From: a virus
Lineage: Duplodnaviria; Caudoviricetes
Length of the DNA stretch: 60,825 nt
Direction: 5' to 3' (one strand)
Virus record (IMG/VR): IMGVR_UViG_3300016469_000245
Coordinates: 1-60,825 of that record
Below, piece after piece: positions 9,001-60,825 of the stretch; the stretch's first letter is position 1, and each line of letters begins with the position of its first letter. A model generated the notes under the pieces. It had not been told where the DNA came from. It made no database searches and saw nothing but the letters and a program-made list of their open reading frames with translations. A program made the translations under genes and the position numbers.

Positions 9001-9745
9001 ATCCGCTGGCGTCTTCGTCAATTCGGAGATCGAGCACGTCCTCCGTCGCGAGCGCGTACACCGTGACGAACGATGCGCCAGAGAGCGGCGTGGTGAACTC
9101 CAGCTCGAACGCATCGAAGAAGCCGTAGAAGAGGACCGTCGCGCCGCGCGTGCCCGTGAGGTTGATCGCCTCCAGCTCGTCGCTGATCTTCGTGAACCCG
9201 AAACCGCCATCCGCTCGACCACGAAGGCGGAGCGTTCCGGCGCTGGCTTCCGCATCGAGCGAGATCGTCACCTGCCGCATCGGCAGGAACTTCTGGTCAT
9301 CGAGCTTGCCGGCGGTCGCTGCTGCGCCGGTCCATGCCTCGATGATCTTCTGCGCTGGAGCGCGCCTGCGAGATTGCTCTGGCGAGAAGTCTGCGCGTGC
9401 GACGGAGAAAAGCTGCGCGGTCGCGTTCGCTCCAGTTAACGCTGTGGTGAACTCCAGCTCGTATGCGTCATAGAAACCGCGGAATACAACAGTTACTCCG
9501 GGCAAGCCGGTAAGGTTGATCGCTTCGAGGTCAGCAGAGATTCGAGTGAACGAAGCGTCTTGCGCAACGCGGCCTCGAATCCGCAACACGCCACCGGTTG
9601 CAACGGCATCGAGCGACACCGTGATCTGATGATCGACAAGGCTCCGATGGTCGGGGCACTCTCGCGCAATCGCGCCCGTATTCCACGGCCCACCGATGGG
9701 CTGCGAAATAAGGCGACGACGCGCGGGAATGCCTTGTTCTTTCAT
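6059..9745 (-). CDS. Large collagen-like tail fibre/receptor-binding protein with duplicated domains and Gly-rich C-terminus
   Basis: Start MKEQG at 9745 overlapping the upstream stop (ATGA); three Gly-X-Y tracts; paired repeated globular domains; GGGGGSGE...YGAGGGGG C-terminal domain. Confidence 0.85.
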
Positions 9746-10359
9746 CGGAAGCGAGGTCCGCCGATCCAGCTCACGAGGGCTTTGCGAGTTCCTCGCGTGA
9801 TCGGAGTCACGCAGTGCGGAACCCACGAGGGAAAGATGAGCATGTCACCTTGCCCGATGTGGCCCGGATCGAAGTCCTGATCCGTGAACAGTCGGAGCCG
9901 GCACCCGTCGTACTCTTCGGGCGGCGAGAGCTGCACGATGACCGACAGCTTCCGGAGCGAACTATAGCCGCCACCGAAGTCTTGATGCCAGTCGTAGTGC
10001 CCCGGCGGTCGCGTCTCGTCGCCGGTGTCGTAGCGGAGGTACACGATGTCCTCCAGCATCCCGTGGAGATCGAACTCGAAGTGCTCGTTGTTCGTCCACT
10101 CCACGCGCTCGCGGATGCGCTGGAAGAGCCAGTGCAAGTTGTCCTCCGGAAAGAGCGAGCACGTCTTCACCGTCCGGTATTCGAGGTTCTGCCGGAAGGA
10201 ATTGTTGTCGCCGTTGCCGATAGTTCCGTCGCAGAGCTGCTTCGATTCCGCGACAGCGTTGATCGCGTCGCATTCGGGAGGACTGAACGCATTGCTGTAG
10301 AACACATAAGGCGGGAAGAACTTCTTCTCCCGCGGTCGAATGAGTCGAACGTCTTTCAT
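9742..10359 (-). CDS. 2OG-Fe(II) oxygenase (prolyl-4-hydroxylase/PKHD-like)
   Basis: YDWHQD (HxD), [37 protein letters not shown] (distal His and 2OG-binding Arg). Confidence 0.92.
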
Positions 10360-24530: not shown

Positions 24531-26069
24531 TCATACCGCATCCGGTTCTGCACTCCGTGTCCCCGCCAGCCGGGACGGCACCTTCTGGAAGAAGGTCAAC
24601 GCGAGCGCGTCGGCCGCGTCCGGCGACGGCACTCCGCGCGCCTTCATGTCTTCCTTCGACTCCAGCAGCTCAAGCTGCGTCGTGCGCTGGTACGTGTAGG
24701 TCGGCGCGAGGATGTCGGATTGCAGCATCGGGTCATCCGGGATGTCGGCGCCCTTGAGCCAGTCGCGCATCCGGGCCCACATCACGATCCGCATGTTCGC
24801 GTAGACCTTCTTCTCGCTAGGGTCTTCCGGCTTCGATCCGCTGTGGACTTCCACCACGTTCTGCACGCCCATCTGCACGAGCCGGTCGTACACGCCAGAG
24901 CCCATGCCCGTAGCGTCCACGAAGATCACGTCCGGGGCGAAGTCGCGTATCGCCGTCATCACGCGCGACGCCACCGCCATGAGGTCGCGCACGTTGAGTC
25001 GGATGATGGTCGGGTGCATCTTCCGCCCGACGCGGAGCACGATCACGCTACTGTCGTCTCCCTGCCGCGCCACGTCAACGCCCATGATGCGCGGCACCGT
25101 GCGCGGCACGTCCTTCCATTCGATCTTGCGCTTGACCGCTTCCGCGACATCGACCGGGCTGATGAACTGGCTGAACGCCTGATGCGGGAACATGCCGCGC
25201 ACGCGGACGCGCACGAAGTCGCTGTCTTCGCCGTGGTCCTCGATCCACTCCGTGAGCTGCTGCCTGTTCGTGAACGTCACGGTTCGCGAGTCCACCGTGT
25301 ACGTCTTCCATCGGTGGCGGAACCTGTGATGCGAGTCGTGGAAGCCGCCGCTGCTCTCGGTCGGGTTGCCGAACGCGAAGAACAAACATCGGCCCGACGT
25401 GAGTCCACCTTCCGCGACTTCCCAAATCTTCGGCGCGATGCCCGACGCTTCGTCGAAGACGAACATCACGTACTTCTCGTGCGTGCCGGCGAACGCCTGT
25501 GAGTTCGCCTCCGACCACGGCACCTTCGCAGCGAACCACAGCTCGCCGTCGTCGCGATGCCTGTAGCGCGTGGCCGTCCACTCGAACATCCACCCGTTGA
25601 TCGCGTGCTTCTGCCACTTGCGCAGCTCGCGCCACGTCTTCGTGTCGAGCTGGTTCTCGGTGGACGCCGTGACCACGATCTGCGGTCGGACGTGCGTCGA
25701 GATGAACCAGTGGATGATCCACGCCACTAACGCCGTCTTGCCGACACCGTGACCCGTCGCGACGCTCACCTTGATGACCGTGTTGAGCGCTTCCTCCGGC
25801 GACAGTCCGTTCGTCAGTCTCTCTTGCAGGTCCATGAGGACGTTGCGCTGCCACGTCTCCGGGTAGCGCCGCTCAAGGTCCGTGCCGCGCTCGCCCCACG
25901 GGTAGCACGCCAGCACCCAATCCCACGGACGATCACGGAACGAGATCACCCACTCGGCGAACTGCTGCGCCTCTTCCTTCGTCTTGAAGGTCGGCGGATC
26001 GACCGAGTGAATCTCTTCGACCTTGATCGGTCGAGCGAGGTCTTCGAGCTTGAATGCTGGAACGCTCAC
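24531..26069 (-). CDS. terL: Terminase large subunit
   Basis: PETWQ Q-motif, ATGHGVGKT Walker A, FVFDEASG Walker B, GNPT, GVDVARQGDD and SPDAADAL nuclease motifs; GTG start inferred from a GTGA overlap. Confidence 0.95.
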   Translation of the reverse strand: MSVPAFKLEDLARPIKVEEIHSVDPPTFKTKEEAQQFAEWVISFRDRPWDWVLACYPWGERGTDLERRYPETWQRNVLMDLQERLTNGLSPEEALNTVIKVSVATGHGVGKTALVAWIIHWFISTHVRPQIVVTASTENQLDTKTWRELRKWQKHAINGWMFEWTATRYRHRDDGELWFAAKVPWSEANSQAFAGTHEKYVMFVFDEASGIAPKIWEVAEGGLTSGRCLFFAFGNPTESSGGFHDSHHRFRHRWKTYTVDSRTVTFTNRQQLTEWIEDHGEDSDFVRVRVRGMFPHQAFSQFISPVDVAEAVKRKIEWKDVPRTVPRIMGVDVARQGDDSSVIVLRVGRKMHPTIIRLNVRDLMAVASRVMTAIRDFAPDVIFVDATGMGSGVYDRLVQMGVQNVVEVHSGSKPEDPSEKKVYANMRIVMWARMRDWLKGADIPDDPMLQSDILAPTYTYQRTTQLELLESKEDMKARGVPSPDAADALALTFFQKVPSRLAGTRSAEPDAV

Positions 26070-26224
26070 TTCCACCAGCTCATCGCGTCGATCATGCGTT
26101 GCGGCATGAGATGGAAGCGGAAGCTCTCGGCGAGCGGCCACCAGCCGATAGCGTGCGCAATGGCCTCCGATAGCACCGTGCGGCGCATGACGCCGGTGGG
26201 GGATGGCAGCGCTTTCTGGCTCAC
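26066..26224 (-). CDS. Small hypothetical protein (not in ORF track)
   Basis: MSQKALPSPTG...MSWWK, 52 aa, with GTGA overlaps at both ends. Confidence 0.5.
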   Translation of the reverse strand: MSQKALPSPTGVMRRTVLSEAIAHAIGWWPLAESFRFHLMPQRMIDAMSWWK

Positions 26225-28248: not shown

Positions 28249-28323
28249 TGGAGCGGGCGATGGGACTTGAACCCACAGCGGGCAGCTTGGAAGGCTGCTG
28301 CTCTACCTTTGAGCTACGCCCGC
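28249..28323 (-). tRNA. tRNA-Gly (anticodon TCC)
   Basis: GCGGGCG/CGCCCGC acceptor stem, GCTC/GAGC D-arm, GCAGC-CT-TCC-AA-GCTGC anticodon arm, TTCAAGT T-loop, U73 discriminator and encoded CCA. Confidence 0.95.
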
Positions 28324-47816: not shown

Positions 47817-50800
47817 CTACTCCGCGAGCTTCAGGTAGGGCCTCGCCATCTCCAGCAGCTCGTTCCGCTCCCGGTTGATCTGGTCGATGGCCTCGCGCTT
47901 CATCTCCGGGGTCATGTCGGACACCATCACGAAGCGCTGCCGCGTGTTCAGGGAGCGCAGGCCGTCGCGGAAGTCCCCAAGCACGCCCCTGATCTCCAGC
48001 TCGCTCTGCCGGCGTCCTACGAGCGCCTGCGCCTCCGCAAGCCGATCCGTCCGCAGCATCATGTTGACCGTGCGGTAGAGGTCGTCGGCGCGCTCCAGCG
48101 CCGCGTAGAGGTCGTCCGCGTACTTGTTCCGGGACTGCACCGCCGGATCAGGCCGCACGAAGCGCGCAATGGGCGCGTCGGGCAGGAACGGGAAGCGGTC
48201 GGCCGGCTCGGCCGGGAACGCCCCGGTCGCCGCCACGGCGCTGTCCGTGCCTTGCAGGATGTACGAGCCGATGGTCCCGAGATAGCCGCGGACCGCCGCC
48301 TCGATCCGCACGGGCGAGCGCATCCCGTCCGGCAGGAAGTCCGGCATGATCCGCGCCAGCACGCGCGCGGTCTCGGAGGTCCACGGGTTCGCCTGTTCCT
48401 CCGGGATCAAGCCGGCAAGGTTCACGTCCACGATGGGCTGGCCGGTGAAGAAGTTCCGGTTCGCCCACTGCTCGACGAGCGGCTTGATCGCCTGCGGCAA
48501 CGGGTTGAACGCGAACGTGTCCAGCAGCGCTCGACGAATGGACGCCATGAACTCGCGACCGCTGTCTTGCCCGGCCAGCGCACGCACCACGCGCTCCGGA
48601 ATCGTCGCCGCGATCACGCCAACCTCGAACGGCTTCGGGATCGCGAAGTGACTGTTGCCGACGAAGATGTGCCAGTACGTGTCCTTCTGGTCGTCCGGGA
48701 GCTTCTCGTAGCGCTCGTCGTCCCAATTCGCGAGAGCGACGAGCATCGACGCCATGCCGAGCATGATGCTCTTCGTCCAGAACCGACGACGCCCTTCGGC
48801 CGGGTCTTCCGCATCGCGCCCGAGTGCGCCCTTGTAGAGCCGGTAGAGACCTTGGATGCGGGCGTTCAAGAACGGCACCGTGCGGATGAGGAACTGCGCT
48901 GCGATGGAGTCGCCACGCTGCGCGAAGTTCATGATGTCCTGCGCCTGATACGCAGCCTCCGCCATCGAGCCTCCGTCCGCGAGCACCTTCCGCGCGATTG
49001 CGAAGCGGTTGATCTGCTCGGACACGAAGCCGATCTTGCGATAGGTCTCCCACAGCTTCCGCGGCGAGTTCACGAGGATCGAACCGTCGGGCGGATTGAC
49101 CTTGCCGAGCACGTCGCGAAGGTCCGTGATCGGGTTGTAGAACGTCTCTCCCACGCCGCCAGCGATGGCGAGGTCACGCGAGAGGCCATCCCCGGTCCAG
49201 ATGTCGCGCGCGTCTTGGATCGCCGTCGAGAGCGGCACGAAGTTCGCCGACGACGTGACGAAGGAAGACAGCGTGTCGCGCATCCAGTTAGCGGCCATGA
49301 ACGCCGGATCGAGCGTGACCATGTTGGTCAGCAGGTTCTTCGCTCCCTGCATCGCATCGACGAGCGCGCCGAAGTCCATCGACTTCATGTCCATGATCGC
49401 GCGCAGCACCAGCGGATCGTTGACCCTGTAATACTCCAGCCGACCGCCACGGCTGACGCTCACCACGTCGTTGCCGATGGGACGAATCCTGCGGAAGAGC
49501 GTGCTCCACTGCTCCTTCTGCTGGTCGGTCATCTGCTCGACGACGCGGATCGCCTTGTCGTAGCCGGCCGCAGGATCGACACCCATGTCGGTCCACCAGA
49601 AGAGCCGGTTGAACTTCCGAGCGCGCGGGTCTTGGTCATCGCCGACCACGAGCCCTGCCTTTGACAGCGCCTTCGCGATGTCCTCGTTCGTGAACTTGAT
49701 GGCCTCGACCTTGAGCGGCTCGGCTTCGAGGACGCCGGCAGATTCGCCGAGCGCAACGATGCGCTGCATCGCCTCGTTCTTGTAGATGCGATCCAGCAGC
49801 GCCGCCATGTTGAGCACGATGTTCTGCGTCACCGGCTCGATCATCTTCTCCGAGCCCGTGAGCCGCTTCGACTTGTATTGCTGATTCGAGAAGCCGCCGT
49901 GGCGGCGCGCGCCACCGGGGCCCGCCGACGTGTCGTCCTCGTCCATGACGCGATAGAACGGCACGTAGTCGTTCTGCTTCCAGAGGTCCGCTTCCTCGCG
50001 CGACATCACGCCACGATCCACGGCGAGGTCGAGCATCTCGGCGTTGAACTTCTGCCAGTTGTCGAAGACCGACTTGAAGTGCGGGTACTGATTCTCCAGC
50101 TCCAGCAGCTTGTCGATCTCGTCCTGCGTCAGCAGCTTTTCCTTCGACGTGCCGTCGCGGTTCGTCTGCTGGATGAGCTGGTTCGCGCGACGGGCGATGG
50201 CGTAGCCTTCCCACAGGTACACCTGATTCTTCCCGTCCGCGGTCTGGTGCAGCGGGCGGAAGATGTCGTACAGGCCCATGCGCCCCGGCTGGCTCACGAA
50301 GGAACCGTTGTCGTAGCGCGGCACTCCGAAGCGCGCGACCGCCGCCACGAGCTGCGGCAGGTTGCGCGTGAGGTTGACCATCTTGTACGCCGACTGCGAT
50401 GCGTCCAGCAGTCCGCCACCGTACTGTCCGCGCTCCAGCTCTTCGATAGCCGCGGCCGAGTCGATCCACCCGGTCTTCAGCTCCAGCATCGTCTCGCCGA
50501 TGGAGAAGCGATCCCGCGCCATGCGGAAGTAGTGCTGCATCTTGCCCCACAGATTGAGGTCGTGGGGCGTCGGTTCGAGGGTCTTCGCGAGGATGCGCTC
50601 GACTTCCTGATCGCCTTCCGCTCGATGGCGGAGCGAGAACGCCGGAGCCTCGCCGCTCTGGCGCTTCCTCCAGCCGTCCGAGAGCCGGATGCGGAGACCG
50701 TCGCCGGCCTTCTCCACGGCGTACCCTGCGCGCTTCAGCGTCTCTTGGGACGCAGCGAACGGGCTGAACACCAGCTCGGCCACGCCTTCCTCTGCGGCGA

Positions 50801-53800
50801 AGCGAGCGAGTGTCCTGATCGCCTCCGGGCCCTTGCCGAGCATCTCGTTGACGGCCAGCGCCGGACCCTTGTCGCCGGGCACAGTCGCAACCCGAGCGGA
50901 CAGGCCCGCGGCCGGGATGCTCACCAGCCGCTCCCCGTCCTCGATGAAGACCGATCCCTGCCCCGCGGCACCCCGGTAGGTCGTCTCGATCTTGCCGTCC
51001 TCGCCGAACCGCACGAGCGACTGGCGAAGGCGCGTGACGCTGGTCGGTACGACGCCCGTCCGGATGCCGTCATGCACCCGGTACATGAGGTCGATGAGGT
51101 CGTTGTCGCTCCACCGCTTCACGAAGCCATGCTCGCGGAGCCACTGGCGCACCGCGGCGATGAGCATCTTCCACACCGACGGGTTCTCGTTCGGCGACAC
51201 CTGCGCGAGATACTCGTCCGCGAGGACACGCTTGCGCTCTGTCGGCGACAGGCCGGCGACCACATCTTTGTAGCGGTTCGCGATCTCCTTGTAGCGCGGC
51301 GTGCCCTTGATCGAGTCGAAGATGTCGTCTCGCAGCTTGTTGAACGCCTCGCGACCGAGCGTTGCGCGCAAGCCGAAGTGACCGAGCGCTTCCTCGAAGA
51401 GCACGGATTCCACTTCCTCCCGCGACGACAGAGCGTCGGCGATCATCCACACCTGCCCGTCCGCATAGAAGCCGCGCGGCGACTTGTCGGGACCGATGCT
51501 CGCCAGCCAGCGGGAATATCGCGACGGAAGGTCTTTCGCGGACTTCACCACGTTGACCTTTGGCGCAGCCTTCCAGCTCGACGCGATGTCTGCGACGTGA
51601 TCTCTGACCTGATCCACGGTGAACGGCTTTCCGCTCGGGCTGGCGATGGACCACGCCGGCATCTCATCCACGTCAAGCGCCTGCCTCACCTTGTCCGTGA
51701 TCGGGATGACCCACACAGGTGCTTTTCCATCTTCGGCCCGGAATCCGGTATTCCCTTCGGTCTGCCCGTGCAGAACGCCATTCATCACCTTGGCTTCCGG
51801 ATCGACGCTCTTCAAGAACTTCTCGGCGATCTTCACCATCTCTCGGTCGTAGAACTGCGACATGCCACCGCCCGATCCGCCCAATTCCTCTGCGCTGATC
51901 GACACCGAAGGCACATTCAACGGCATTTGTGAATAGCTGCCTTGCTCTGCTCTCCACTCAAGCGACCGTTCCGTCAGCTCTTGCAGCGACATGTTTTTGT
52001 CTGCCGCCTGCTGCTCCATTTTGGCCCTTGCAAGCGCGATACCTTCCCCGCTGAGAAGCATTTCCGACATCTTCTTCCCAAGAACCGCTTGCATCGTGTG
52101 TCGCGCAGTCTGAATGGTTTGCGCCGACACGCCAGTGCTGTCGAAAAAGAATGTCTGCGCGTTTCCGTACTTCGGAACCGCCGCTACCGTGTGCTGCGCA
52201 ATGGGATAGTTCGATACGCCTTGACCGAAAATCGCCCGCACCGACGGATCGGTAGACCTGTAAACTACGCTATCGTACTCGGCCGTCAAAGCCGATCTGT
52301 ACCTTCGGCCCTGAATCTCACCGCTGGTCCACGCGACATGCGTGAACCCCTTGCTGGCCGCGTGCGCCAAGAACATCTTGAACGACGTATCCGTCCATGC
52401 GTTCAGCAGCGGCGGGCGCTTGTACGAACTGATCTTGGCCTTCGCATCCCTGAAGTAGTCTTCCGCTTCCTTGGTTCTCACGCGATCATCATAAGTCTTC
52501 GCCATCGCGTCGATAATCATCGCCGAGATGTGTCCGAACCTTTCTTCATCCGCCTTGTTTCTTAGCCTTTGAAACGCGTTTCCTTTTTCAAAGTCGTACC
52601 CACGACGCCTCATGTAGTCAACATTGAGGTCGTCAATCATCGAGTTCAACACCCACGTGTCGCGATCCATCACATGCGTCAGTTCCGGCACGTCCGCAAG
52701 AAGCGCATCGAATTCCGCTTGCGCTTCTGCGTATGCACCCTCTACAAGCTCCGTCGTAAGCCGGTACTTGTTTGCGTTGACGAGCTTGTTGAATACCTGA
52801 TCCAGTGCCTCCAGACGGCTTCTGTTGACCTTGCCGCTCATGTAGATAGCGGCCGTTGCGTACCGGATTCTGAATGCCACATTCACTGCGTGCGTGCTGC
52901 GATCCTTGAATCCCTCCGAAATGTCGAATACGAGCTTCTTGCCAGCCTTGCTTGCCGCAATCGCTTCCGTCGTGAACGTCGCTTCGTTTTTTCCGAAGCT
53001 GTAATCGAATGTCGTATCGCTTTCGTGATACTCCGTCGAGTGTGCAAAAAGCGATGTCACAAAATTCTTCACGTCGTAATACGACGGATTTTCGTTCATG
53101 AACGAATCCGCTTCAGCGGTTGAGGCGAAGCGGCTCTGCACTCTCTTGAGAACCGTCTCCGGAGCGATTCCCGCCGGAGCTATGGCGATTTCTGTGAGTT
53201 CTTTATCGAATCCGAAATCCTCGACGAAGACAGATTCCACTTTCTTCAAGATGTCTTTCTTCGACTGCTCGATGTGAGACTCCACCATGTTCAAGAGTTC
53301 TTTGCGCTTTGCTTCCTGCGCCTCAAGGCCGATGTCCTCCGGCACCATCTTGGATGCCTTGGAGGTATTCATCCCCATGTAGTTGACCAACATGCGGACG
53401 AACTCGCTCCGCACGCGGTCAACCGCCTGCGACCAATCGGACTGGAACTCTTCGATGAAGAACGTGTCCAGCGGCTCGGACGCCTCTCCTTCCTCCGTCA
53501 CAGGGAACACGTCGCGCGTGGACGTGCGCGCGTGCATGACCAAGTTCTTGTTGTACCGGAAGTGCCCGTCCAAAAACTCGTTTCTGCGCGCGTCCCAATG
53601 GAACGTCCACTCCTGCATTCCTTGGAACGGGCCAGCAGTGTTGTACGAATGGTATTCAAGCGGGTCGGTTTCGTCGATAAGACTCGGCCCACCATCATCG
53701 TCCATCTCGTTTTCAATCACCCACTGTCGAAGCTGTTCGATGTATTCCTCGGTCTCTCGCTCCCTTCTTCGAGCCCTCACAAGAGCGCGATTTGCTTCGT

Positions 53801-56800
53801 CTTCTGAATCGTATGATGTTGCATCGCCGTCTTCGTCAGATACGACGTATTCCGATCCGTCTATATGCGATGTCCATCGCCCGACAAGAAGACCTTCTTC
53901 AATCAAGTGATCGGCAATTTCTTCCGCAGAAGGGCGACTCAAATCTTTTCCGCCTTCTTCGTACAGATAGTCGCGCAGCGCTCGCGCAAGATCGCTGTCG
54001 TCCGTCGGCGTTTCGTCGTTCGCTCTCGCCCAATCGTCCCACTTATCTGCAATGTGACTCACAACGTCAATCACTGATTGACGAACAGAGTCAGCCTCTT
54101 CGGCAGTCCACTCGCTTACATCCTTGCTCTTGATGGACTCCCATGTTTCTTCACGCTCTTTTGTGCCGCTTTCGGTCTCGCCAACAAACTCGGCGATATT
54201 AAGCCCGGACTCAATGAAGACTTCATAAGCAGCCTTCGCTTCGTCAACAGACATCGCGGCCAAGTTGTTTCGCCTAGATGGATACTTAAACTCCACCTCC
54301 CTGTCGATCTCTTCCATGTTCGATCGCCACTCAAACTGCTTCTCGAACCTGTCGATGACGGCTTGAGAATTCATGAGTTCGCCGATCTTTTCCTCGATCT
54401 GCTCTTCCGTCAACGGCTCCGGCGCATTCGCGCGCTCGCCTCTCTGAAGCGCTTCGCTTCCACGAATAATCATGGAGATCGTGGGAACCTTCACGGCGTC
54501 GAGCACCGCGCTCTTCGAGAGCACGTCTGCCCCTTCCGGCAGATACCACACCGGGTCAAGCGCCTTGTATGCGGCACCCGATCCCGTGTTCGGCTCAATG
54601 TTTGCGCTGAGACTCTCGAACGCTTGCTCTGCGCGCTCAACCGATTCCTGAACCTTCCTTTCGATACCCTCTTCGCGCGGAGACGCTTCGTTGCGCAGGC
54701 GATGAATCTCCTTCGCTATGCCGAGAAGGTAGCTCGCCCTGTTTCCGATGTGCGACAAATCCGACCCGGTAAACACCATATTGAAATCGGCGGTGCCGCG
54801 CATGTATTCCGTGAGGTCTTTGTTAAGGATTTCGTGGATTTGGCTAGCGATGTCGGCGTAAACCGGCACCATCTCTTCGCCTCGCTTCATGACTTCGTTG
54901 CTGCGAACGATGTCGTCAAGCGCTTCGTTGATGTTGGCGAACGTCGCCTCTTCCTTGCTGATCTTGCCTTCGGCGACCATGCGCTCGAAGAACCGCTTCC
55001 ACTTATCGACAGGCGCCGACTTCGGACCGTTCGTGCGGATCACGCGGCGAAGGCGCGAGATGAAGCGAACCCCGCCGAACTCGAACATCGTGTCCTTCAG
55101 CGCTTCACTGGCCTCCTGCTCTTCGCTGGCCTTCGGGTTGTCCGCGATGCTGAAGGCTGGCATCTCACCTTCGTAGGTGTCCTCCATCACCCAATCCGGG
55201 AGCAAGCCCATCTTCTGGTCGGCGTAGTAGGTGTCGGCACCGGACCGGCCTTTGTTCCACTCGGCCACGGTCATGCCGGCGCCCGGATGGTCGCCGCGGA
55301 TCACCTTGTCGGAGAAATTGACGAAGCTGTTCTGGCCGCGCGTCTCGGCCGTCATCGCCATGCGCGCCGCCGGGGAATACATCGCCGCGTGCGAGCGCCA
55401 TGCGTTCTCTTCGCCATCGGCGCGGAAGCCGACGCCGTTCATCACGTGACCGAAGTAGTCATGGACGACGCGGAAGAGATCATTGGCGAGCATCGGCTCG
55501 CCATCGTCCGTAGTGAACTCCGTCTCCGCCAGCAGAGGGTTCTCTTCCGGGTCGAACGTCGCGTCGGTGCCGAATCCGTCGCGCGTCGAGAAGACCCACA
55601 TATGGTTGTTGACTACGATGTCGAGAATCGCCTTGCGCGGCGTGCTCGCATACGGATCGCCGGTCTCGGCGTACTTGATGAATTGGACCTTGAACTCAGG
55701 ATGGTACTTGCGGATCGCGCGGAACTGCGCCGCGGTCTCGGCGATCATCGCATCGTAGGCCGCGCGCACCACGGGGTTGCGCGGATCGTGCTCCATCTCA
55801 TCGAACGCCTTGGCGATTCGCCTGCTGCGCTCGGGATCGACCGTGACGTACTGCTTCGGCGGGTTGTACGCCATCCCGGCGTCGCGCATGTACGCGCGCG
55901 CGACACGCTGCGCCTTCTTGAACGAATGGAAGAAGACCTTCTGCCCGTCCACGCGCTGCGCGGACGGGAGCCCCTCTAGGTCCGTACCCCGCGCAGATTT
56001 CGGATACGGCCGATCCGCGCTCGGTACATCCCGAGCGCTTCCTCGAACTCTTCCTGCGTCTCGAACTGCTCCCTCGTCGGGGGCGGCGGGAGCGACGGAG
56101 AAGGCTGGCCGCTCAACGCCGAGTCGGCTGGCGATTTCGGCGGCTGCGCTCCGACGAAGATCGCCGAGCGCTTCCCACTCAGCAGTTGTTCCTGCGGCCC
56201 CGCGGAGCGTACTTTCATAGTCCTGCTTCCCGATGAAGGTCGCGCCGATCTGGCCGTGCGCGACAGTGACGGATTCATCGCCATCCAGCATGGCGAGACT
56301 GTTCTCGATCCGCTCGGCCAGCGCAGCGATGTCGCCGTCGCTGAAGTCGAGGATCAGCATCTTCCCATCGACATTCGAGAACCCCTCGATGCCGACGTTC
56401 TCGCGGAGATGCTGGTACACCTTGGTCGCGAGTGCTCGCGTGATCTCGGTGTCGAACTCCAGCGTCACCGCGCCAACCTTCTCGGGCGCGTCCTTGTCGA
56501 TCAGGATCACGCTGTCCTGTGCGTACACGTAGCCGGCGGCGGCTGCCGCCCGCAGCGTTTCCTCCCGCGACATCTCAGGCGCGAACTCGACCGACAGGGA
56601 CGGGTTGACCTGATCCAGATACCCGCCGAACGATTGCACGTAGCGCTCGGGGTCGATCCCGAGAACGCCCATGATCTGCGGCGTGATGAGGGCATTCAGC
56701 TCATGCGTGAGCTGGTCGCGCTCGGCCTCCGGCAGAGCGGCGAATCGGTCACTCAGCTCACGGTCGTTCGGGTCCGGCGCGATCTCGAAAGCGCCGGACC

Positions 56801-59800
56801 TTACCGCAGCTTGACCACCTTCGCGACGCTCACCACTGCGCCGGCCGGGATTTTCAGGGCCGTCCGCAGCTTCTCCGGGTCCGCGGAAGCGTCGAGGCGC
56901 CCGAGTCGGATCGTTCCGAGCATCTTCCCGGACTCCGGCTTCGAGTCGCTCTTGCTTCTGTCGTGCAGCGTTCCGGTCTGCGTCTTCATAGGTGTCTCCG
57001 ATGCCGTAGCTGATCCCGATTCCCTCGTAGATCGCACGGTTTCCACGGTACGTGAGATGTACCTCGTACTTGTCGAGCTGGTCCTGCACTTCCTGCATGA
57101 CCGCTTCCGCCGGGCGTCCCGACGTTTGCACGGTTTGCAGAAATGCTCCAAGTTCGCGCAAGATAGCATCGGCTGCATCATGTGACAAGGTATCGTTAAT
57201 CCGCTTCAAACCGTCCATGTCGATAGCCGCAATCCGGCCGTCGTCGAAGATGGCGGCGAACTCATCGCCCGAGCGGTGGAAGAATCCGCGACCCTTGCCG
57301 GTGCGGACGGCCTCGTCGAATGCCTTCTTGTTCGGGAGCCCGGTCACGCGGCTGGTGTTCAGCTCGGTCTTCAGCTCCGACAGCTCTTCCCGAAGCACTT
57401 CCTGCTCCGGGCGCTGCACACCCTGCCGCTTCTGGATCGCGCGGCGCACGCGACCTTCTGAGGCGACCGGAACGCGGATCGCCTTGCCGGTGAACTCGCC
57501 ATCGACTTCGGACGCCAGCTCGGCGCCGTCGATCCCGGCTGGCACATCGACCGTCGTGAACTTCCGCTGGAGCACCATCGGCTCGCGGTTGAACGGGTTG
57601 ATCGGAACATCGGTGTCGCCGCGCTTCATCCACTCGCGCGCCTGTTCGTTCGTCATCGCGATGATCGAGCCGAACCCGTTCCATCCTTTAGGGAAGTGCG
57701 ACAGGTATGCGTTCTTCGCCTCGCCTTCGCTGTCGAAGCCGAGCATCACCTTGTGCTCGTCGAACTCGCCGGTCTTCGGATCGAGCTGCTGGACGACGAA
57801 CACCTGCTTCTTCGGATCGTTCGCGCCGCGACCGAGGTACACATCGAGCGGCTCACCATCCTGCGACTTCGTGCCGGGGATGTAGCCGTAGTGATTCTTC
57901 ATCTTGCGCTGCCACGGGCTCTTCGCTCCGGGGCGCGACTTGCGGATCGAGCCGGCCGGATTCTCGACCGACACCTTGAAGCCAGCGAGCTTGACCTTGC
58001 CCTTGCGGTAGTTGCCGGAGCTGATCTCCGCGTCCGACGGCTCGCGGAAGTCATTGAGCGGCGACGTGGCCGCATCGTTGGCCGCGATCTCGATGGCCCG
58101 CTCGGCAACATCCGGCGGCGCATCCGGGGCGATCTCGACCGCGCCCGACGGGCGAGCGGCCACCAGCTCCGGCTGGAGGCCGCTCTCCGTGATCTGCCTT
58201 GCGACGTTCTCAGCTCGCGGGGTTACGGCTTGGGCCCCCGGCCCGGCCGTCCCGGCATCGCTCCCCCGCCCCGTACCGGGGACGGCGGCTTCGAGGCCGA
58301 CGGCGGCTTCACCGACGGCGGCTGCGGGCGCGGCGGCTTGGTTGCCGGCGGCTTGGGTGGGCGCATCGAACCTGACGGCATTGCTGCTTTCCTCCGGGGC
58401 TCCAATGGTGAAGGCGACGCCGGTAGCCCCTTGGACCTGTTGCGCCACCATCTGCAAGGCGGACTCGCCCTGCTTGCGAACGGGAACGACGACGCTGCCG
58501 TCGTTCATCACGTAGCCAGTCGCACCAGCCTTCGCGAGCGCGCCCATCACTTCGTCGAGCTTGCCCGGCTCGGCAGCGAACCGCGCGCTGGTCTCGAAGC
58601 CGAACTTCGCCGCGTCCTTCACGAACGCCTGCTGCGTGAGGTAGCCCGATCCGTCGATGTCCTCGCCGACCTTCGCGTCGATGAACTCCGGTGCCTTGCC
58701 CGTGTCGCGCAGGATTTCGAGCGCGCGGTTGAACTCGATCACCGTGCGGTCGCCGGGAGCGCCGTCGAGCTGATTTCGACCGGCCCACCGCGCGACCTTC
58801 ATGAACTCGCTCGCCGGCACACCGGCCGACTGCACTTCGTCCAGCGTCTTCTGGACGCGCTGCATCATCGCTTCGGACGGCTTCGCGAACTTCGGGGGCG
58901 GCGTCTCCAGCTTGGGCGCCTTGCCGCTCGAAGGGGGCTTCTTGCTGCCCGTCGGCTTCACTCCACCCGGAGCTTCGCCGCTCTCGAAGATCGCCGTCGT
59001 GCCTGCGCCGAGCACGCCACCGACGATGCCGCCAGTCACCGCAGCGTTCAGCACACCTTCCCACGGGTCTTGCGTGAAGTCGGCGTACTCGCGGATACCG
59101 AGGTTCTGGAGCACTTGCTCCGCGCCCGACTGCGCGAACTCCTGCGCCGCCTCGCCGGCTGCACCCTTGGCGACGGTGGCAGCGAAGCCCATGCGCTCAT
59201 TCAGCTTCAGCGCGCCTTCCTTCACGGCTTTGCCGACCGCCGTGTCGGCCGCGCCAGATGCGGCGACCTTTCGGCCGAGCGTGCCGAAGAACGCGCCCAT
59301 CGGAGCGCCGAGACCCGCCGTCGCAAGGCCCACATTCAGCGCGACCGAGTTTGCAGCCTCGCGCGCGAGCGTGCGGCGCGCGTACTCCTGCCGCGCCTCT
59401 TCGTCTTCCTCGCCTTCGGTCGCGTTGTAGATTTCGCGATAGCGATCCGACTTCACCATGAGGTCGTCGTGGTCGCGACCCATGATGTCCTCTTCGATTG
59501 CGACACCGCTCGCGCCGCCGGCCAGCGCGCCTTCGGTGAGACCGCCGCCGAGAGCACCCGCGATCTGCTGCGCGCGCTTCAGAATCTTGTTCGCGCGGAC
59601 ACCGCCAGCGGCGGCTTCCTTCATGAGCTGCGGAGCGCCGCGCTTGAGCGCGGCCGTCGAGAGAATTGCTGCGCCTTTCGCGGCGCCGGCTGTCAGCATC
59701 ATCTCGTTGAGCGATGCAGCCGCTCCGGCGACGATGGTCGTCATCGTCCAGTCGTCACCGATGCTGTAGCCGAGCGGACTCGATTCGTCCTTCTCGATGA

Positions 59801-60182
59801 TGTTGGCTTCCGCCTGCTTGCGGAAGCCTTCACTGACCTTGCTGTTCCACCACTCAGCGGACTCGCCAGCGCGCTCCTTCAGAGCGGCGCCAGCTTCTTG
59901 AAGGATGTTCGTTCCGTCCAGCGACAGCGCGTCACCGAGCCGCTCTGTGAGGAAGCCGACCGTCTGTCCCGTGCGCGCAGCGCCGGACATGAACGTCTTG
60001 CCGACATCGCCAGCATAGCGAACCGCGGAATCGAGCCAGCTCTCTTCCTCGTCAAACGCGACCGACGGCGTGAATCCATCCGGCGCCTTCTTCAGCATGT
60101 ACGGCTGCTCTTCCGGTTCGTCCGGATTGAAGAGCGGCTGGTATCCCTGCGGCGCCTTCCTGATGCGATACACGTCGGTCAT
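47817..60182 (-). CDS. Giant polyvalent internal virion protein (InPase-like, GGDEF-like, HDxxGH, GNAT-like, zincin-like and LPD38-like modules)
   Basis: 4121 aa; GNYRKG..ENP.GS..YGYI..DG..LDV..FDEHKVMLG; TGLPN/SGDEF/IDMDGLKRIND; FRVVHDYFGH; EEFQSDW; EEALGHFGL; IPKPFE..KPLVE..NRNFFTGQPIV..SP. Confidence 0.9.
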   Translation of the reverse strand: MTDVYRIRKAPQGYQPLFNPDEPEEQPYMLKKAPDGFTPSVAFDEEESWLDSAVRYAGDVGKTFMSGAARTGQTVGFLTERLGDALSLDGTNILQEAGAALKERAGESAEWWNSKVSEGFRKQAEANIIEKDESSPLGYSIGDDWTMTTIVAGAAASLNEMMLTAGAAKGAAILSTAALKRGAPQLMKEAAAGGVRANKILKRAQQIAGALGGGLTEGALAGGASGVAIEEDIMGRDHDDLMVKSDRYREIYNATEGEEDEEARQEYARRTLAREAANSVALNVGLATAGLGAPMGAFFGTLGRKVAASGAADTAVGKAVKEGALKLNERMGFAATVAKGAAGEAAQEFAQSGAEQVLQNLGIREYADFTQDPWEGVLNAAVTGGIVGGVLGAGTTAIFESGEAPGGVKPTGSKKPPSSGKAPKLETPPPKFAKPSEAMMQRVQKTLDEVQSAGVPASEFMKVARWAGRNQLDGAPGDRTVIEFNRALEILRDTGKAPEFIDAKVGEDIDGSGYLTQQAFVKDAAKFGFETSARFAAEPGKLDEVMGALAKAGATGYVMNDGSVVVPVRKQGESALQMVAQQVQGATGVAFTIGAPEESSNAVRFDAPTQAAGNQAAAPAAAVGEAAVGLEAAVPGTGRGSDAGTAGPGAQAVTPRAENVARQITESGLQPELVAARPSGAVEIAPDAPPDVAERAIEIAANDAATSPLNDFREPSDAEISSGNYRKGKVKLAGFKVSVENPAGSIRKSRPGAKSPWQRKMKNHYGYIPGTKSQDGEPLDVYLGRGANDPKKQVFVVQQLDPKTGEFDEHKVMLGFDSEGEAKNAYLSHFPKGWNGFGSIIAMTNEQAREWMKRGDTDVPINPFNREPMVLQRKFTTVDVPAGIDGAELASEVDGEFTGKAIRVPVASEGRVRRAIQKRQGVQRPEQEVLREELSELKTELNTSRVTGLPNKKAFDEAVRTGKGRGFFHRSGDEFAAIFDDGRIAAIDMDGLKRINDTLSHDAADAILRELGAFLQTVQTSGRPAEAVMQEVQDQLDKYEVHLTYRGNRAIYEGIGISYGIGDTYEDADRNAARQKQERLEAGVREDARNDPTRAPRRFRGPGEAADGPENPGRRSGERREGGQAAVRSGAFEIAPDPNDRELSDRFAALPEAERDQLTHELNALITPQIMGVLGIDPERYVQSFGGYLDQVNPSLSVEFAPEMSREETLRAAAAAGYVYAQDSVILIDKDAPEKVGAVTLEFDTEITRALATKVYQHLRENVGIEGFSNVDGKMLILDFSDGDIAALAERIENSLAMLDGDESVTVAHGQIGATFIGKQDYESTLRGAAGTTAEWEALGDLRRSAAAEIASRLGVERPAFSVAPAAPDEGAVRDAGRVRGSARDVPSADRPYPKSARGTDLEGLPSAQRVDGQKVFFHSFKKAQRVARAYMRDAGMAYNPPKQYVTVDPERSRRIAKAFDEMEHDPRNPVVRAAYDAMIAETAAQFRAIRKYHPEFKVQFIKYAETGDPYASTPRKAILDIVVNNHMWVFSTRDGFGTDATFDPEENPLLAETEFTTDDGEPMLANDLFRVVHDYFGHVMNGVGFRADGEENAWRSHAAMYSPAARMAMTAETRGQNSFVNFSDKVIRGDHPGAGMTVAEWNKGRSGADTYYADQKMGLLPDWVMEDTYEGEMPAFSIADNPKASEEQEASEALKDTMFEFGGVRFISRLRRVIRTNGPKSAPVDKWKRFFERMVAEGKISKEEATFANINEALDDIVRSNEVMKRGEEMVPVYADIASQIHEILNKDLTEYMRGTADFNMVFTGSDLSHIGNRASYLLGIAKEIHRLRNEASPREEGIERKVQESVERAEQAFESLSANIEPNTGSGAAYKALDPVWYLPEGADVLSKSAVLDAVKVPTISMIIRGSEALQRGERANAPEPLTEEQIEEKIGELMNSQAVIDRFEKQFEWRSNMEEIDREVEFKYPSRRNNLAAMSVDEAKAAYEVFIESGLNIAEFVGETESGTKEREETWESIKSKDVSEWTAEEADSVRQSVIDVVSHIADKWDDWARANDETPTDDSDLARALRDYLYEEGGKDLSRPSAEEIADHLIEEGLLVGRWTSHIDGSEYVVSDEDGDATSYDSEDEANRALVRARRRERETEEYIEQLRQWVIENEMDDDGGPSLIDETDPLEYHSYNTAGPFQGMQEWTFHWDARRNEFLDGHFRYNKNLVMHARTSTRDVFPVTEEGEASEPLDTFFIEEFQSDWSQAVDRVRSEFVRMLVNYMGMNTSKASKMVPEDIGLEAQEAKRKELLNMVESHIEQSKKDILKKVESVFVEDFGFDKELTEIAIAPAGIAPETVLKRVQSRFASTAEADSFMNENPSYYDVKNFVTSLFAHSTEYHESDTTFDYSFGKNEATFTTEAIAASKAGKKLVFDISEGFKDRSTHAVNVAFRIRYATAAIYMSGKVNRSRLEALDQVFNKLVNANKYRLTTELVEGAYAEAQAEFDALLADVPELTHVMDRDTWVLNSMIDDLNVDYMRRRGYDFEKGNAFQRLRNKADEERFGHISAMIIDAMAKTYDDRVRTKEAEDYFRDAKAKISSYKRPPLLNAWTDTSFKMFLAHAASKGFTHVAWTSGEIQGRRYRSALTAEYDSVVYRSTDPSVRAIFGQGVSNYPIAQHTVAAVPKYGNAQTFFFDSTGVSAQTIQTARHTMQAVLGKKMSEMLLSGEGIALARAKMEQQAADKNMSLQELTERSLEWRAEQGSYSQMPLNVPSVSISAEELGGSGGGMSQFYDREMVKIAEKFLKSVDPEAKVMNGVLHGQTEGNTGFRAEDGKAPVWVIPITDKVRQALDVDEMPAWSIASPSGKPFTVDQVRDHVADIASSWKAAPKVNVVKSAKDLPSRYSRWLASIGPDKSPRGFYADGQVWMIADALSSREEVESVLFEEALGHFGLRATLGREAFNKLRDDIFDSIKGTPRYKEIANRYKDVVAGLSPTERKRVLADEYLAQVSPNENPSVWKMLIAAVRQWLREHGFVKRWSDNDLIDLMYRVHDGIRTGVVPTSVTRLRQSLVRFGEDGKIETTYRGAAGQGSVFIEDGERLVSIPAAGLSARVATVPGDKGPALAVNEMLGKGPEAIRTLARFAAEEGVAELVFSPFAASQETLKRAGYAVEKAGDGLRIRLSDGWRKRQSGEAPAFSLRHRAEGDQEVERILAKTLEPTPHDLNLWGKMQHYFRMARDRFSIGETMLELKTGWIDSAAAIEELERGQYGGGLLDASQSAYKMVNLTRNLPQLVAAVARFGVPRYDNGSFVSQPGRMGLYDIFRPLHQTADGKNQVYLWEGYAIARRANQLIQQTNRDGTSKEKLLTQDEIDKLLELENQYPHFKSVFDNWQKFNAEMLDLAVDRGVMSREEADLWKQNDYVPFYRVMDEDDTSAGPGGARRHGGFSNQQYKSKRLTGSEKMIEPVTQNIVLNMAALLDRIYKNEAMQRIVALGESAGVLEAEPLKVEAIKFTNEDIAKALSKAGLVVGDDQDPRARKFNRLFWWTDMGVDPAAGYDKAIRVVEQMTDQQKEQWSTLFRRIRPIGNDVVSVSRGGRLEYYRVNDPLVLRAIMDMKSMDFGALVDAMQGAKNLLTNMVTLDPAFMAANWMRDTLSSFVTSSANFVPLSTAIQDARDIWTGDGLSRDLAIAGGVGETFYNPITDLRDVLGKVNPPDGSILVNSPRKLWETYRKIGFVSEQINRFAIARKVLADGGSMAEAAYQAQDIMNFAQRGDSIAAQFLIRTVPFLNARIQGLYRLYKGALGRDAEDPAEGRRRFWTKSIMLGMASMLVALANWDDERYEKLPDDQKDTYWHIFVGNSHFAIPKPFEVGVIAATIPERVVRALAGQDSGREFMASIRRALLDTFAFNPLPQAIKPLVEQWANRNFFTGQPIVDVNLAGLIPEEQANPWTSETARVLARIMPDFLPDGMRSPVRIEAAVRGYLGTIGSYILQGTDSAVAATGAFPAEPADRFPFLPDAPIARFVRPDPAVQSRNKYADDLYAALERADDLYRTVNMMLRTDRLAEAQALVGRRQSELEIRGVLGDFRDGLRSLNTRQRFVMVSDMTPEMKREAIDQINRERNELLEMARPYLKLAE

Positions 60183-60194
60183 TGTTCTTGTCCG

Positions 60195-60825
60195 TTACGA
60201 GAGAGGAACCCCGGTCTTGGCGAACTGATACGAGAGAGGAACCCCGGTCTTGGCGAACTGAGCCGCGCTCGCGGCTGATCCGGACATGCTCGGACGCGCC
60301 GCCTTTCCGCCGCCCATGATCTTCCGCATCACTTCCTTGAGCTGCTCGGGGTCCGTGATGCCGAAGTCCTCGCGAAGCGAGTATTCGATGTCGGCCGGCG
60401 CCATCTCGGAGAAGTTCGGGGAGCCCATGATCGCATTGATCGCGGTCGTTGGGTCGGCCTTCTTCTCGGTCTTCGCTTCCCCGCCGGCAGCGGCTTCGGG
60501 CTCGGTCTTCGGTAGCTCGATGTTGACCATCTCGCTCGCCTTGCTGAAATAGCTCTGGAACTTCTCGTCGGCCGCGACGATCTTGTCCTCGTAGCGCTGT
60601 GCGATCTGCGCTTGCGCGGCTTCAAGGCGCTCCGGGTTGAACTTCAAGGCTTCGTTCTTCGACAGCTCGGCGATCTCTTTCTGCATGGACGACACGAGCG
60701 AGTTCTTCTCGTTCGCTGCCGCCTGCATTCCGAGCTGGATCACGTTGAGCTGTCGTGCGGTCTCCGAGTCCTTGACCTGTTGCTCGCGCGCCGCAATGGT
60801 CGCTTCGAGCTGCGCGCGCTGCACA
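60195..60825 (-). CDS. 3' part of the junction-spanning virion protein
   Basis: In-frame continuation of 1..299 (combined 309 aa). Confidence 0.8.
   Translation of the reverse strand, partial: VQRAQLEATIAAREQQVKDSETARQLNVIQLGMQAAANEKNSLVSSMQKEIAELSKNEALKFNPERLEAAQAQIAQRYEDKIVAADEKFQSYFSKASEMVNIELPKTEPEAAAGGEAKTEKKADPTTAINAIMGSPNFSEMAPADIEYSLREDFGITDPEQLKEVMRKIMGGGKAARPSMSGSAASAAQFAKTGVPLSYQFAKTGVPLS
60196..60261. repeat. Perfect 33-bp tandem duplication
   Basis: TACGAGAGAGGAACCCCGGTCTTGGCGAACTGA twice (60196-60228, 60229-60261). Confidence 0.95.

Follow-up and report, generated by a model that had tools for sequence, protein, structure and literature searches.

A GGDEF domain with permuted motif order in a giant polyvalent protein of a tailed phage

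The viral record IMGVR_UViG_3300016469_000245 (Duplodnaviria; Caudoviricetes), analysed here over positions 1 to 60,825 and called the window in this full length of 60,825 nucleotides, encodes on its minus strand a giant protein, P0001, in which amino acids 946-1085 form a genuine GGDEF-family domain with an internal, non-circular permutation. Its catalytic beta-hairpin stands ahead of the strand-helix block which it follows in canonical members of the family, and this permuted fold is conserved and is no artefact. The domain is probably an active cyclase in a presumably packaged polyvalent protein, which would most likely convert two molecules of GTP to cyclic di-GMP (c-di-GMP).

Motif order and domain layout

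A sequence-only reading of the window had proposed the motif order VTGLPNKKAF, HRSGDEF, IDMDGLKRINDTLSHDAAD, GISYGIG and had placed SGDEF at 57258-57272. Both proved exact to the base upon translation of P0001 and codon arithmetic from the start of the open reading frame (ORF), by which SGDEF occupies residues 971-975. The in-frame translation of 56889-57419 on the minus strand contains SRVTGLPNKKAFDEAVRTGKGRGFFHRSGDEFAAIFDDGRIAAIDMDGLKRINDTLSHDAADAILRELGAFLQTVQTSGRPAEAVMQEVQDQLDKYEVHLTYRGNRAIYEGIGISYGIGDTYEDAD, and a longer stretch of it reads ELKTELNTSRVTGLPNKKAFDEAVRTGKGRGFFHRSGDEFAAIFDDGRIAAIDMDGLKRINDTLSHDAADAILRELGAFLQTVQTSGRPAEAVMQEVQDQLDKYEVHLTYRGNRAIYEGIGISYGIGDTYEDADRNAARQKQERLEAGVRED; VTGLPNKKAF begins at 57347, and the part from AAIDMD to AIL lies at about 57159-57230. 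From alignments and structure prediction with AlphaFold2 (AF2; H, helix; E, strand, in domain numbering) the region is divided as follows:

57360-57410, minus strand: helix before the domain, amino acids 925-941 (AF2 H4-20; fold matches include the constructs of coiled coil plus GGDEF 6ttr and 3i5c), a possible dimerisation stalk
57300-57347, minus strand: VTGLPNKKAF entry turn and helix alpha0, amino acids 946-961 (AF2 H31-40; matched in alignment to LTGLxNRR, with which GGDEF domains begin)
57243-57296, minus strand: relocated catalytic beta-hairpin KGRGFFHRSGDEFAAIFD, amino acids 963-980, the equivalent of motif C (block definition; AF2 E45-50, E53-57)
57129-57242, minus strand: strand beta1 and helices DGRIAAIDMDGLKRINDTLSHDAADAILRELGAFLQTV, amino acids 981-1018, the equivalent of motifs A and B with D988, K993, N996, and D1005 (AF2 E63-68, H71-77, H80-95)
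56928-57128, minus strand: C-terminal half of the domain, amino acids 1019-1085, with three strands, GISYGIG among them, between a first helix and a second one which holds ADxxxxxxKxxR (K1076, R1079) (AF2 H104-116, E119-124, E127-132, E136-141, H144-160)

The canonical GGDEF order, in which the DxD strand and the GHxxGD helix come first and the hairpin afterwards, is not that of the window domain. Canonical relatives consist of an N-segment, the strand-helix block (xxAIDMDGLKRLNDTIGHDxAD...), the hairpin (xxRFYHRSGDEFAxxF), and the rest, whereas the window protein consists of the N-segment, the hairpin, the strand-helix block, and the rest, so that in the alignment an 18-residue hairpin and a 38-residue strand-helix block are exchanged relative to the relatives. 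No hairpin is left at the canonical position of the window domain in alignment A2. The hairpin block of the window protein is identical in 12 of 18 positions to hairpins which relatives carry at the canonical position. Comparison of the domain with its closest relatives (44-53% identity) by phmmer yielded three stretches, of which the one at query positions of approximately 41-60, the hairpin, falls after 60-100 in the relative; from this out-of-order stretch it follows that the closest relatives are canonical, and reading of their sequences confirmed it. Together with four colinear proteins described below, these observations show that the hairpin-first order is more than a chance arrangement. 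As homology to GGDEF domains is kept and the classical order of the motifs is not, the domain is best called a permuted variant.

The displaced piece had originally been described as a relocated segment, lower in guanine-cytosine content (GC) than its flanks. The order is indeed changed, but what the alignment contains is a clean exchange of 18 and 38 residues, and GC is silent on which of the two pieces moved. A dip is present over DMDGLKRINDTL (0.52, as compared to 0.65 in the hairpin and a gene mean of 0.625), but it is modest and carries no sign of a moved or foreign piece. Over 90-nucleotide windows of the gene the standard deviation of GC is 0.068, and the lowest of these windows, with 0.478, lies at the 2.6th percentile of the gene. 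The dip was not accepted as evidence that a segment is foreign or has moved, since it reaches only this percentile and lies over a conserved motif rich in K, N, I, and D; the richness of this motif in K, N, I, D, and T is its probable cause.

Family membership and occurrence of the permuted order

With the Pfam GGDEF profile (PF00990) the domain alone scored 33.7 bits (cut-off 23.8), the match covering only positions 5-71 of the 161 of the profile, and the whole protein scored 27.2 bits at amino acids 946-1020, covering profile positions 6-71 of 161. Two partial matches in reversed order had been expected in the sequence-only reading, and only one was obtained, the hairpin of 18 residues being too short to score alone. 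The family profile A2 matched 54 distinct PDB sequences at E <= 0.001, the best with 1.4e-19. All 54 are GGDEF-domain proteins, judged from molecule names or from what is known of the entries, and some of them, such as FimX, LapD, and DosP, are degenerate and non-catalytic.

Relatives were collected by a HMMER scan of the 177-residue domain against 1.84 billion representatives, which gave 536 proteins at E <= 0.001. The best 150 of these 536 were used, a non-random sample in which most proteins are 2000-4000 amino acids long. With the listed matches of two further searches and with cluster members, 282 proteins were obtained, 129 of which contain the C-terminal block of the family; a C-terminal helix of the form ADx6KxxRxxxGxR is common to the window domain and its polyvalent GGDEF relatives. 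The order of the motifs is canonical in 113 of the 129 rows, permuted in eight, and unclassifiable in eight. The eight permuted rows form five clusters, and three of the rows are the window protein and two copies of it with 99.9% identity.

Apart from the window protein, the hairpin-first order is found in P0031, P0038, P0039 (with its near-copy P0283), and P0059. In alignment A1 their domains are 27-33% identical to that of the window protein and colinear with it, and G51, D52, E53, D67, D69, K72, N75, and D76 (domain numbering) are invariant across the permuted proteins. The search for homologues of the same order, which had been recommended as a check, therefore succeeded with four other polyvalent lineages. 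All five permuted proteins, having 1805-4121 amino acids, are polyvalent-like by size, and three of the five carry marker domains, namely LPD38 in P0001 and P0039 and LPD22 together with ART-PolyVal in P0031; for P0038 and P0059 Pfam gives only a partial GGDEF match. Such half-domain GGDEF matches are confined to P0001, P0038, and P0059, and no Pfam GGDEF match at E <= 0.001 was obtained in P0031 (domain at amino acids ~660-810) and P0039 (~440-590). Since profile searches see half of a permuted domain or none of it, censuses of phage nucleotide-signalling enzymes undercount them.

A scan of IMG/VR yielded 51 loci, 46 of which are canonical, one, on the contig of P0059, permuted, and four unclassified (three of these canonical by eye, one truncated). 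When proteins of 327-2000 amino acids were searched with a permuted profile, the four best by local hidden Markov model among 120 of 445 matches (P0152, P0153, P0165, P0193) were canonical. Search of proteins of 2266-7212 amino acids with the window domain gave 19 proteins, none of them with an identity between 41% and 100%. Genome contigs of GTDB contained only four ordinary cellular GGDEF genes (in metagenome-assembled genomes of Oscillospiraceae and Ruminococcus), all canonical, and tblastn against GenBank phages gave one weak match only. The permuted form is rare but recurrent.

Active-site residues

Seven residues of PleD have been defined for judging the functionality of GGDEF domains, i.e., Asp327, Lys332, Asn335, Asp344, residue 370, Lys442, and Arg446 (PMC6629876), and all seven have equivalents in the window domain. 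Alignment by phmmer of query positions 64-94 to index 324-354 of PleD chain 2wb4_A assigns D988 to position 327, K993 to 332, N996 to 335, and D1005 to 344, and the equivalent of residue 370 is D973/E974 of the hairpin. The lysine at position 159 of the family profile aligns to PleD index 442, which identifies K1076, and the family arginine, R1079 in the window protein, aligns with a one-residue gap to the arginine of AKNNGRN in WspR. Among 119 family rows the asparagine is conserved in 118, the lysine in 108, and the aspartate of GHxxGD in 104. GDE is present in 119 of 119 rows and D.D in nearly all, counts which are partly fixed because the classifying patterns required these residues (G[DE][ED]). 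No RxxD product-inhibition site was found upstream of the hairpin upon reading the sequence.

Predicted structure

A structure prediction, recommended at the outset to compare the domain with known GGDEF structures, gave a confident model. For the window domain (18-row alignment A2) AF2 reached a mean predicted local distance difference test (pLDDT) of 92.7 and a predicted template modelling score (pTM) of 0.86, and for the domain of P0039 (11-row alignment A3) 91.4 and 0.84 with the same order of elements. In the window model the twelve elements from H4-20 to H144-160 follow one another in the order listed above, strands 45-50, 53-57, and 63-68 being consecutive. The chain runs through the hairpin (GFFHRS and EFAAI with GD at the turn), a five-residue link FDDGR, beta1 (IAAIDM), and two helices, which continue directly into the helix that canonically follows the hairpin.

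Foldseek searches of the PDB yielded 28 matches at E <= 0.001 for the window domain and 27 for that of P0039, and every match listed is a GGDEF-domain structure. They include 6ttr DgcB (6ttr_B, 8.8e-07), 7e6g SiaD (7e6g_A, query-normalised TM-score (TMq) 0.60), 6zxb DgcR, PleD, WspR, and DgcZ, with identities of 17-22% to the cellular diguanylate cyclases (DGCs). By AF2 and Foldseek together the domain is predicted to have the palm-type alpha/beta fold of DGCs. Among the predicted viral structures of BFVD five matches were obtained at E <= 0.001, including the DGCs of Bacillus phage SP-15 and Bordetella phage CN1.

In the ordinary palm fold, which is ferredoxin-like, beta3 is the antiparallel neighbour of beta1. 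From this geometry the FDDGR turn could join both into a three-stranded meander, with alpha2 running straight into alpha3, and the changed wiring would restore the active site in the same three-dimensional form. A homodimer prediction with two copies of the domain, two GTP, and two Mg scored 0.32 as compared to a mark of 0.42, and counts neither for nor against dimerisation.

Assembly and strain variation

Two further full-length members of the 90% cluster, on contigs of 61,499 and 60,966 nucleotides, encode a protein which is 99.9% identical and has an identical domain. The stretch 56500-57800 is present in runs of ten studies. Colinearity was checked with contigs, not raw reads, from four runs of four studies other than the possible sources. 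A 20-kb contig spans all of 56500-57800, and contigs of 1390, 1307, and 653 nucleotides cover 56767-57800, 57127-57800, and 57062-57714. All contigs compared are colinear with 56500-57800 and show neither insertions nor deletions nor joints. The assembly, which the sequence-only reading had wished to see confirmed, is in this way upheld by contigs of four other studies and by two further assemblies, and within what contigs can reveal misassembly is ruled out.

Among 23 variable sites 19 are synonymous in the main frame and four non-synonymous; inside the domain five synonymous differences compare to a single non-synonymous one, D1063G. Two out-of-frame ORFs on the same strand, rich in Arg, Ser, and Cys, overlap the domain at 56801-57181 (minus, 126 codons) and 57262-57684 (minus, 140 codons). 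As, in the main frame, 20 of the 23 strain differences fall on third codon positions and 19 leave the amino acid unchanged, these ORFs look like by-products of the high GC. No minus-strand ORF of at least 40 amino acids in another frame begins at the end of the domain in the ORF list of the window.

Origin of the swap

In its flanks and hairpin the window domain is closest to canonical members (53% identity to P0003; hairpin identical in 12 of 18 positions to P0014, P0269, and P0271), and the nearest relatives of P0031 and P0039 are found in a different canonical subgroup (P0153, P0121). A quick IQ-TREE tree of 118 rows, calculated with the hairpin columns left out, placed six permuted rows at four places, corresponding to four order changes, and its well-supported branches force at least two. 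When the hairpin columns were added, the window row fell into a set of 49 rows with 97% support as the sole permuted one. Left out of the trees were the near-identical P0281 and P0282, P0072, which is too short, and the eight unclassifiable rows. In the approximately unbiased (AU) test a single clade of the six permuted rows was not rejected (p = 0.212). Neither was a single clade of four rows after the long-branch P0038 and P0059 had been dropped (p = 0.065), nor one of these four rows with the hairpin columns included (p = 0.275). Independent origins of the swap are suggested, with the balance tilted slightly in their favour. No two-hairpin intermediates were found among the classified family rows. 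P0051 and P0142 had been candidates for such intermediates, but their GEDF strings lie in the alpha0 region and were judged to be chance matches.

The giant protein and its genomic surroundings

Polyvalent proteins, including ones with GGDEF and InPase domains, were described by Iyer, Burroughs, Anand, de Souza, and Aravind in 2017 (PMC5512222). P0001 shares their characteristics, as it is giant, contains multiple domains (InPase, GGDEF, LPD38), and is encoded in a phage contig. GGDEF domains are called 'not very widespread' among polyvalent proteins in that paper, and InPase and LPD38 are confined to the phage-type ones according to it (PMC5512222). The features of P0001 outside the cyclase domain are as follows:

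47817-60182, minus strand: P0001, uninterrupted ORF of 4121 amino acids, a phage-type polyvalent protein which holds the GGDEF domain (ORF list and translation)
57624-58031, minus strand: InPase (inorganic pyrophosphatase) domain, amino acids 718-853 (Pfam PF18823, E 1.4e-47, profile 2-135 of 135)
48186-48719, minus strand: LPD38 domain, amino acids 3822-3999, a marker of phage-type polyvalent proteins (Pfam PF18857, E 4.8e-41)

By these Pfam matches the InPase domain lies ~90 residues upstream of the cyclase domain. PHROG matches in the N-terminal third of P0001 are to a DarB-like antirestriction protein, the N-terminal part of a virion RNA polymerase, a minor head protein, and a virion structural protein, and those in the window include a portal (20981-23434), a large terminase (24531-26141), a tail fibre (6059-9826), and an amidase-like protein. 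The virion RNA polymerase match (phrog_2206, E 2.1e-11, profile 197-426 of 3406) comprises amino acids 147-408 of P0001 (58959-59744, minus), which may be a packaging or ejection module common with N4-like virion polymerases. Amino acids 1425-1623 (55314-55910, minus) match phrog_3170 of unknown function with E 2.3e-12 and contain an HDYFGH-like motif; the polyvalent protein may have a further enzymatic module here.

Just upstream of the giant gene a 209-amino-acid ORF ends at its C-terminus (60195-60245, minus) in a tandem duplicated peptide, FAKTGVPLS followed by YQFAKTGVPLS, and the opposite-strand reading of 60195-60245 gives a repeated ERNPGLGEL. As the peptide is duplicated in the readings of both strands, a short tandem DNA repeat is located at the junction of this ORF and the giant gene. 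The contig has a GC of 0.64 and a single tRNA-Gly with anticodon tcc at 28249-28323 (minus), and no exact terminal direct repeat was found on it.

Proposed function and alternative explanations

Since all residues for the binding of substrate, metal, and phosphate are retained, together with the Asn and Asp that read guanine, c-di-GMP synthesis is the most likely activity of the domain. GTP-Mg would be bound via D988, the acidic pair of the hairpin, K993, K1076, and R1079, and the guanine would be read by N996 and D1005. The helix ahead of the domain, or oligomerisation of the giant protein, would bring two copies together, and two GTP would be condensed to c-di-GMP, presumably free of feedback through the RxxD motif, which is absent from the domain. 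The product pyrophosphate (PPi) would be removed in cis by the InPase domain 90 residues upstream. Delivered with the phage or made early, the enzyme would raise the level of c-di-GMP, or of a related nucleotide, in the host at an early stage of infection. It may be speculated that this alters motility, exopolysaccharide, or surface structures, or disturbs defence systems based on nucleotides. Catalysis, product, dimerisation, packaging, and biological role in this scheme are what we infer from the features described above.

Of 121 classified rows, 23 have an InPase-like module within ~70-560 residues of the GGDEF domain, before or after it, and three of these 23 are the window protein and its copies; the neighbours occur in P0004, P0009, P0012, P0021, P0041, P0051, P0062, P0074, P0075, P0081, P0100, and others. 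In the other four permuted proteins (P0031, P0038, P0039, P0059) no InPase was detected by Pfam. PPi clearance has been suggested for nucleotidyltransferases in general (PMC5512222), and the recurrent neighbourhood of the two domains suggests that InPase and GGDEF may work as a pair, the cyclase releasing PPi and the pyrophosphatase removing it.

Several observations weigh against an active, packaged cyclase. The query-normalised TM-scores of the fold matches are only 0.44-0.60. Such modest values are to be expected for a non-sequential match in an order-dependent aligner and with a free stalk helix, but they would also be compatible with a somewhat distorted fold. The alignments used for AF2 are shallow (18 and 11 rows) and consist mostly of sequences with canonical order, and the proximity of SGDEF to the IDMD aspartate would follow from the order of secondary structure elements and the fold matches. 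The equivalent of Arg446 stands at K+3, not K+4, throughout the family. The first residue of the hairpin motif is Ser instead of Gly; Ser occupies this position in 80 of 119 rows, and SGDEF is the norm of the family. In addition the domain is located in the middle of the chain of a 4121-amino-acid protein in which Pfam and PHROG detected no protease domain for its release, and packaging and injection would follow from annotation at the level of the family only.

The modest TM-scores, the displacement of the Arg446 equivalent by one position, and the recognition of only half of the domain by Pfam would also fit a permuted GGDEF fold which is catalytically dead and serves as a structural spacer or as a binding module for GTP or c-di-GMP, as many degenerate GGDEF domains do. 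This is unlikely, since the seven residues defined in PleD are kept and are invariant or nearly so in five permuted lineages which are otherwise only 27-33% identical, as well as in the 119 rows (N 118, K 108, D 104), and since a recurrent adjoining pyrophosphatase makes most sense beside an enzyme releasing PPi. Degenerate GGDEF domains used for binding only usually lose the acidic pair of GG(D/E)EF, which likewise counts against a dead domain. The earlier view of a rewired rather than decayed GGDEF domain is supported by the seven residues kept, the confident fold, the conservation of the order in other lineages, and the mostly synonymous variation. The functional part of that view, namely cyclase activity, injection along with the DNA, and an effect on c-di-GMP signalling or a decoy role, is plausible. 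With an even lower probability, the domain is an active cyclase or nucleotidyltransferase making a product other than c-di-GMP, for example a different cyclic dinucleotide, a cyclic oligonucleotide, or a linear pppNpN, which would be directed against nucleotide-based anti-phage immunity. The family is divergent from cellular DGCs, with the 17-22% identity of the fold matches, interference with host nucleotide signalling has been proposed as one role of GGDEF domains in polyvalent proteins (PMC5512222), and decoy nucleotides of cyclase type are known on the host side from Panoptes (PMC12657218). However, the window protein retains the equivalents of the guanine-reading Asn335 and Asp344, as do 118 and 104 of 119 rows, respectively. 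GGDEF enzymes with altered base preference change the position of Asp344. An artefact, be it a local misassembly, a chimeric contig, or a chance resemblance in a decayed domain, has a negligible probability. The window is a metagenomic contig and its check rests on contigs and not on raw reads, but the domain is identical in two other assemblies, contigs of four further studies are colinear with differences at the level of single nucleotides and without indels or joints, synonymous and non-synonymous differences stand at 19:4, the order is common to four divergent proteins on other contigs, and the AF2 models are confident. An active cyclase making c-di-GMP is the preferred explanation.

Comparison with known systems and significance

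Canonical GGDEF DGCs (PF00990; PleD, WspR, DgcB 6ttr, SiaD 7e6g, DgcR 6zxb) resemble the window domain in superfamily, predicted fold, and active-site residues, and coiled-coil DGCs have an N-terminal helix before the domain as it has. They differ in that their hairpin comes after helix alpha2, whereas it comes before beta1 in the window domain, and in that they carry GGDEF and are attached to a sensor domain, whereas the window domain carries SGDEF, has no RxxD, and lies inside a 4121-amino-acid phage protein. The GGDEF modules of polyvalent proteins (PMC5512222) belong to the same family, and the closest are 44-53% identical and occur in proteins of 2000-4000 amino acids with LPD, ART-PolyVal, and InPase domains; with 113 rows canonical and eight permuted, the window domain is among the permuted minority. 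Small phage GGDEF genes such as the 'diguanylate-cyclase GGDEF domain protein' of Bordetella phage CN1 in BFVD are members of the same family, too.

Few bacterial signalling enzymes have been studied as much as GGDEF domains. Among the papers listed in a literature search none pointed to a permuted GGDEF domain by title or beginning of the abstract, in PMC7825114 'permutation' occurs only in the reference list, and the main text of Iyer et al. (PMC5512222) contains no 'permut' string and nothing on a permuted active-site topology. GGDEF domains in polyvalent proteins have been known since 2017.

A comparable arrangement exists in RNA-dependent RNA polymerases (RdRps) of Birnaviridae and Permutotetraviridae, which have the connectivity C-A-B-D (Gorbalenya et al. 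2002, as cited in PMC8310298), and whose catalytic sites share, in crystal structures, their overall architecture with those of canonical RdRps (PMC8310298). In these permuted RdRps as in the window domain, motif C, a hairpin that bears the acidic pair, lies upstream of motif A, the strand to which the metal-binding Asp belongs. In contrast to it, RdRps are template-dependent polymerases with fingers and thumb, a different enzyme class without detectable sequence relation to the window domain. No RdRp was among the significant sequence or fold matches, one RdRp of Riboviria in BFVD having E 0.13 and TMq 0.20. The likeness is an analogy of mechanism which implies no relationship.

If the domain is active, it would be a second, independent natural palm site which tolerates the motif C hairpin before motif A, and a test case for the evolution of protein topology and for enzyme engineering. 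The wider proposal, put forward tentatively and somewhat short of an even chance, is that phage polyvalent proteins hold active hairpin-first GGDEF cyclases which were swapped more than once independently, that the palm site is tolerant across unrelated enzyme classes of a C-A-B permutation once regarded as peculiar to the polymerases of birnaviruses and permutotetraviruses, and that standard domain models systematically miss these enzymes. Hairpin-first cyclases are largely invisible to routine annotation, and the pairing with a pyrophosphatase suggests that phages may deliver into cells a self-contained module to "make the signal and pull the reaction".

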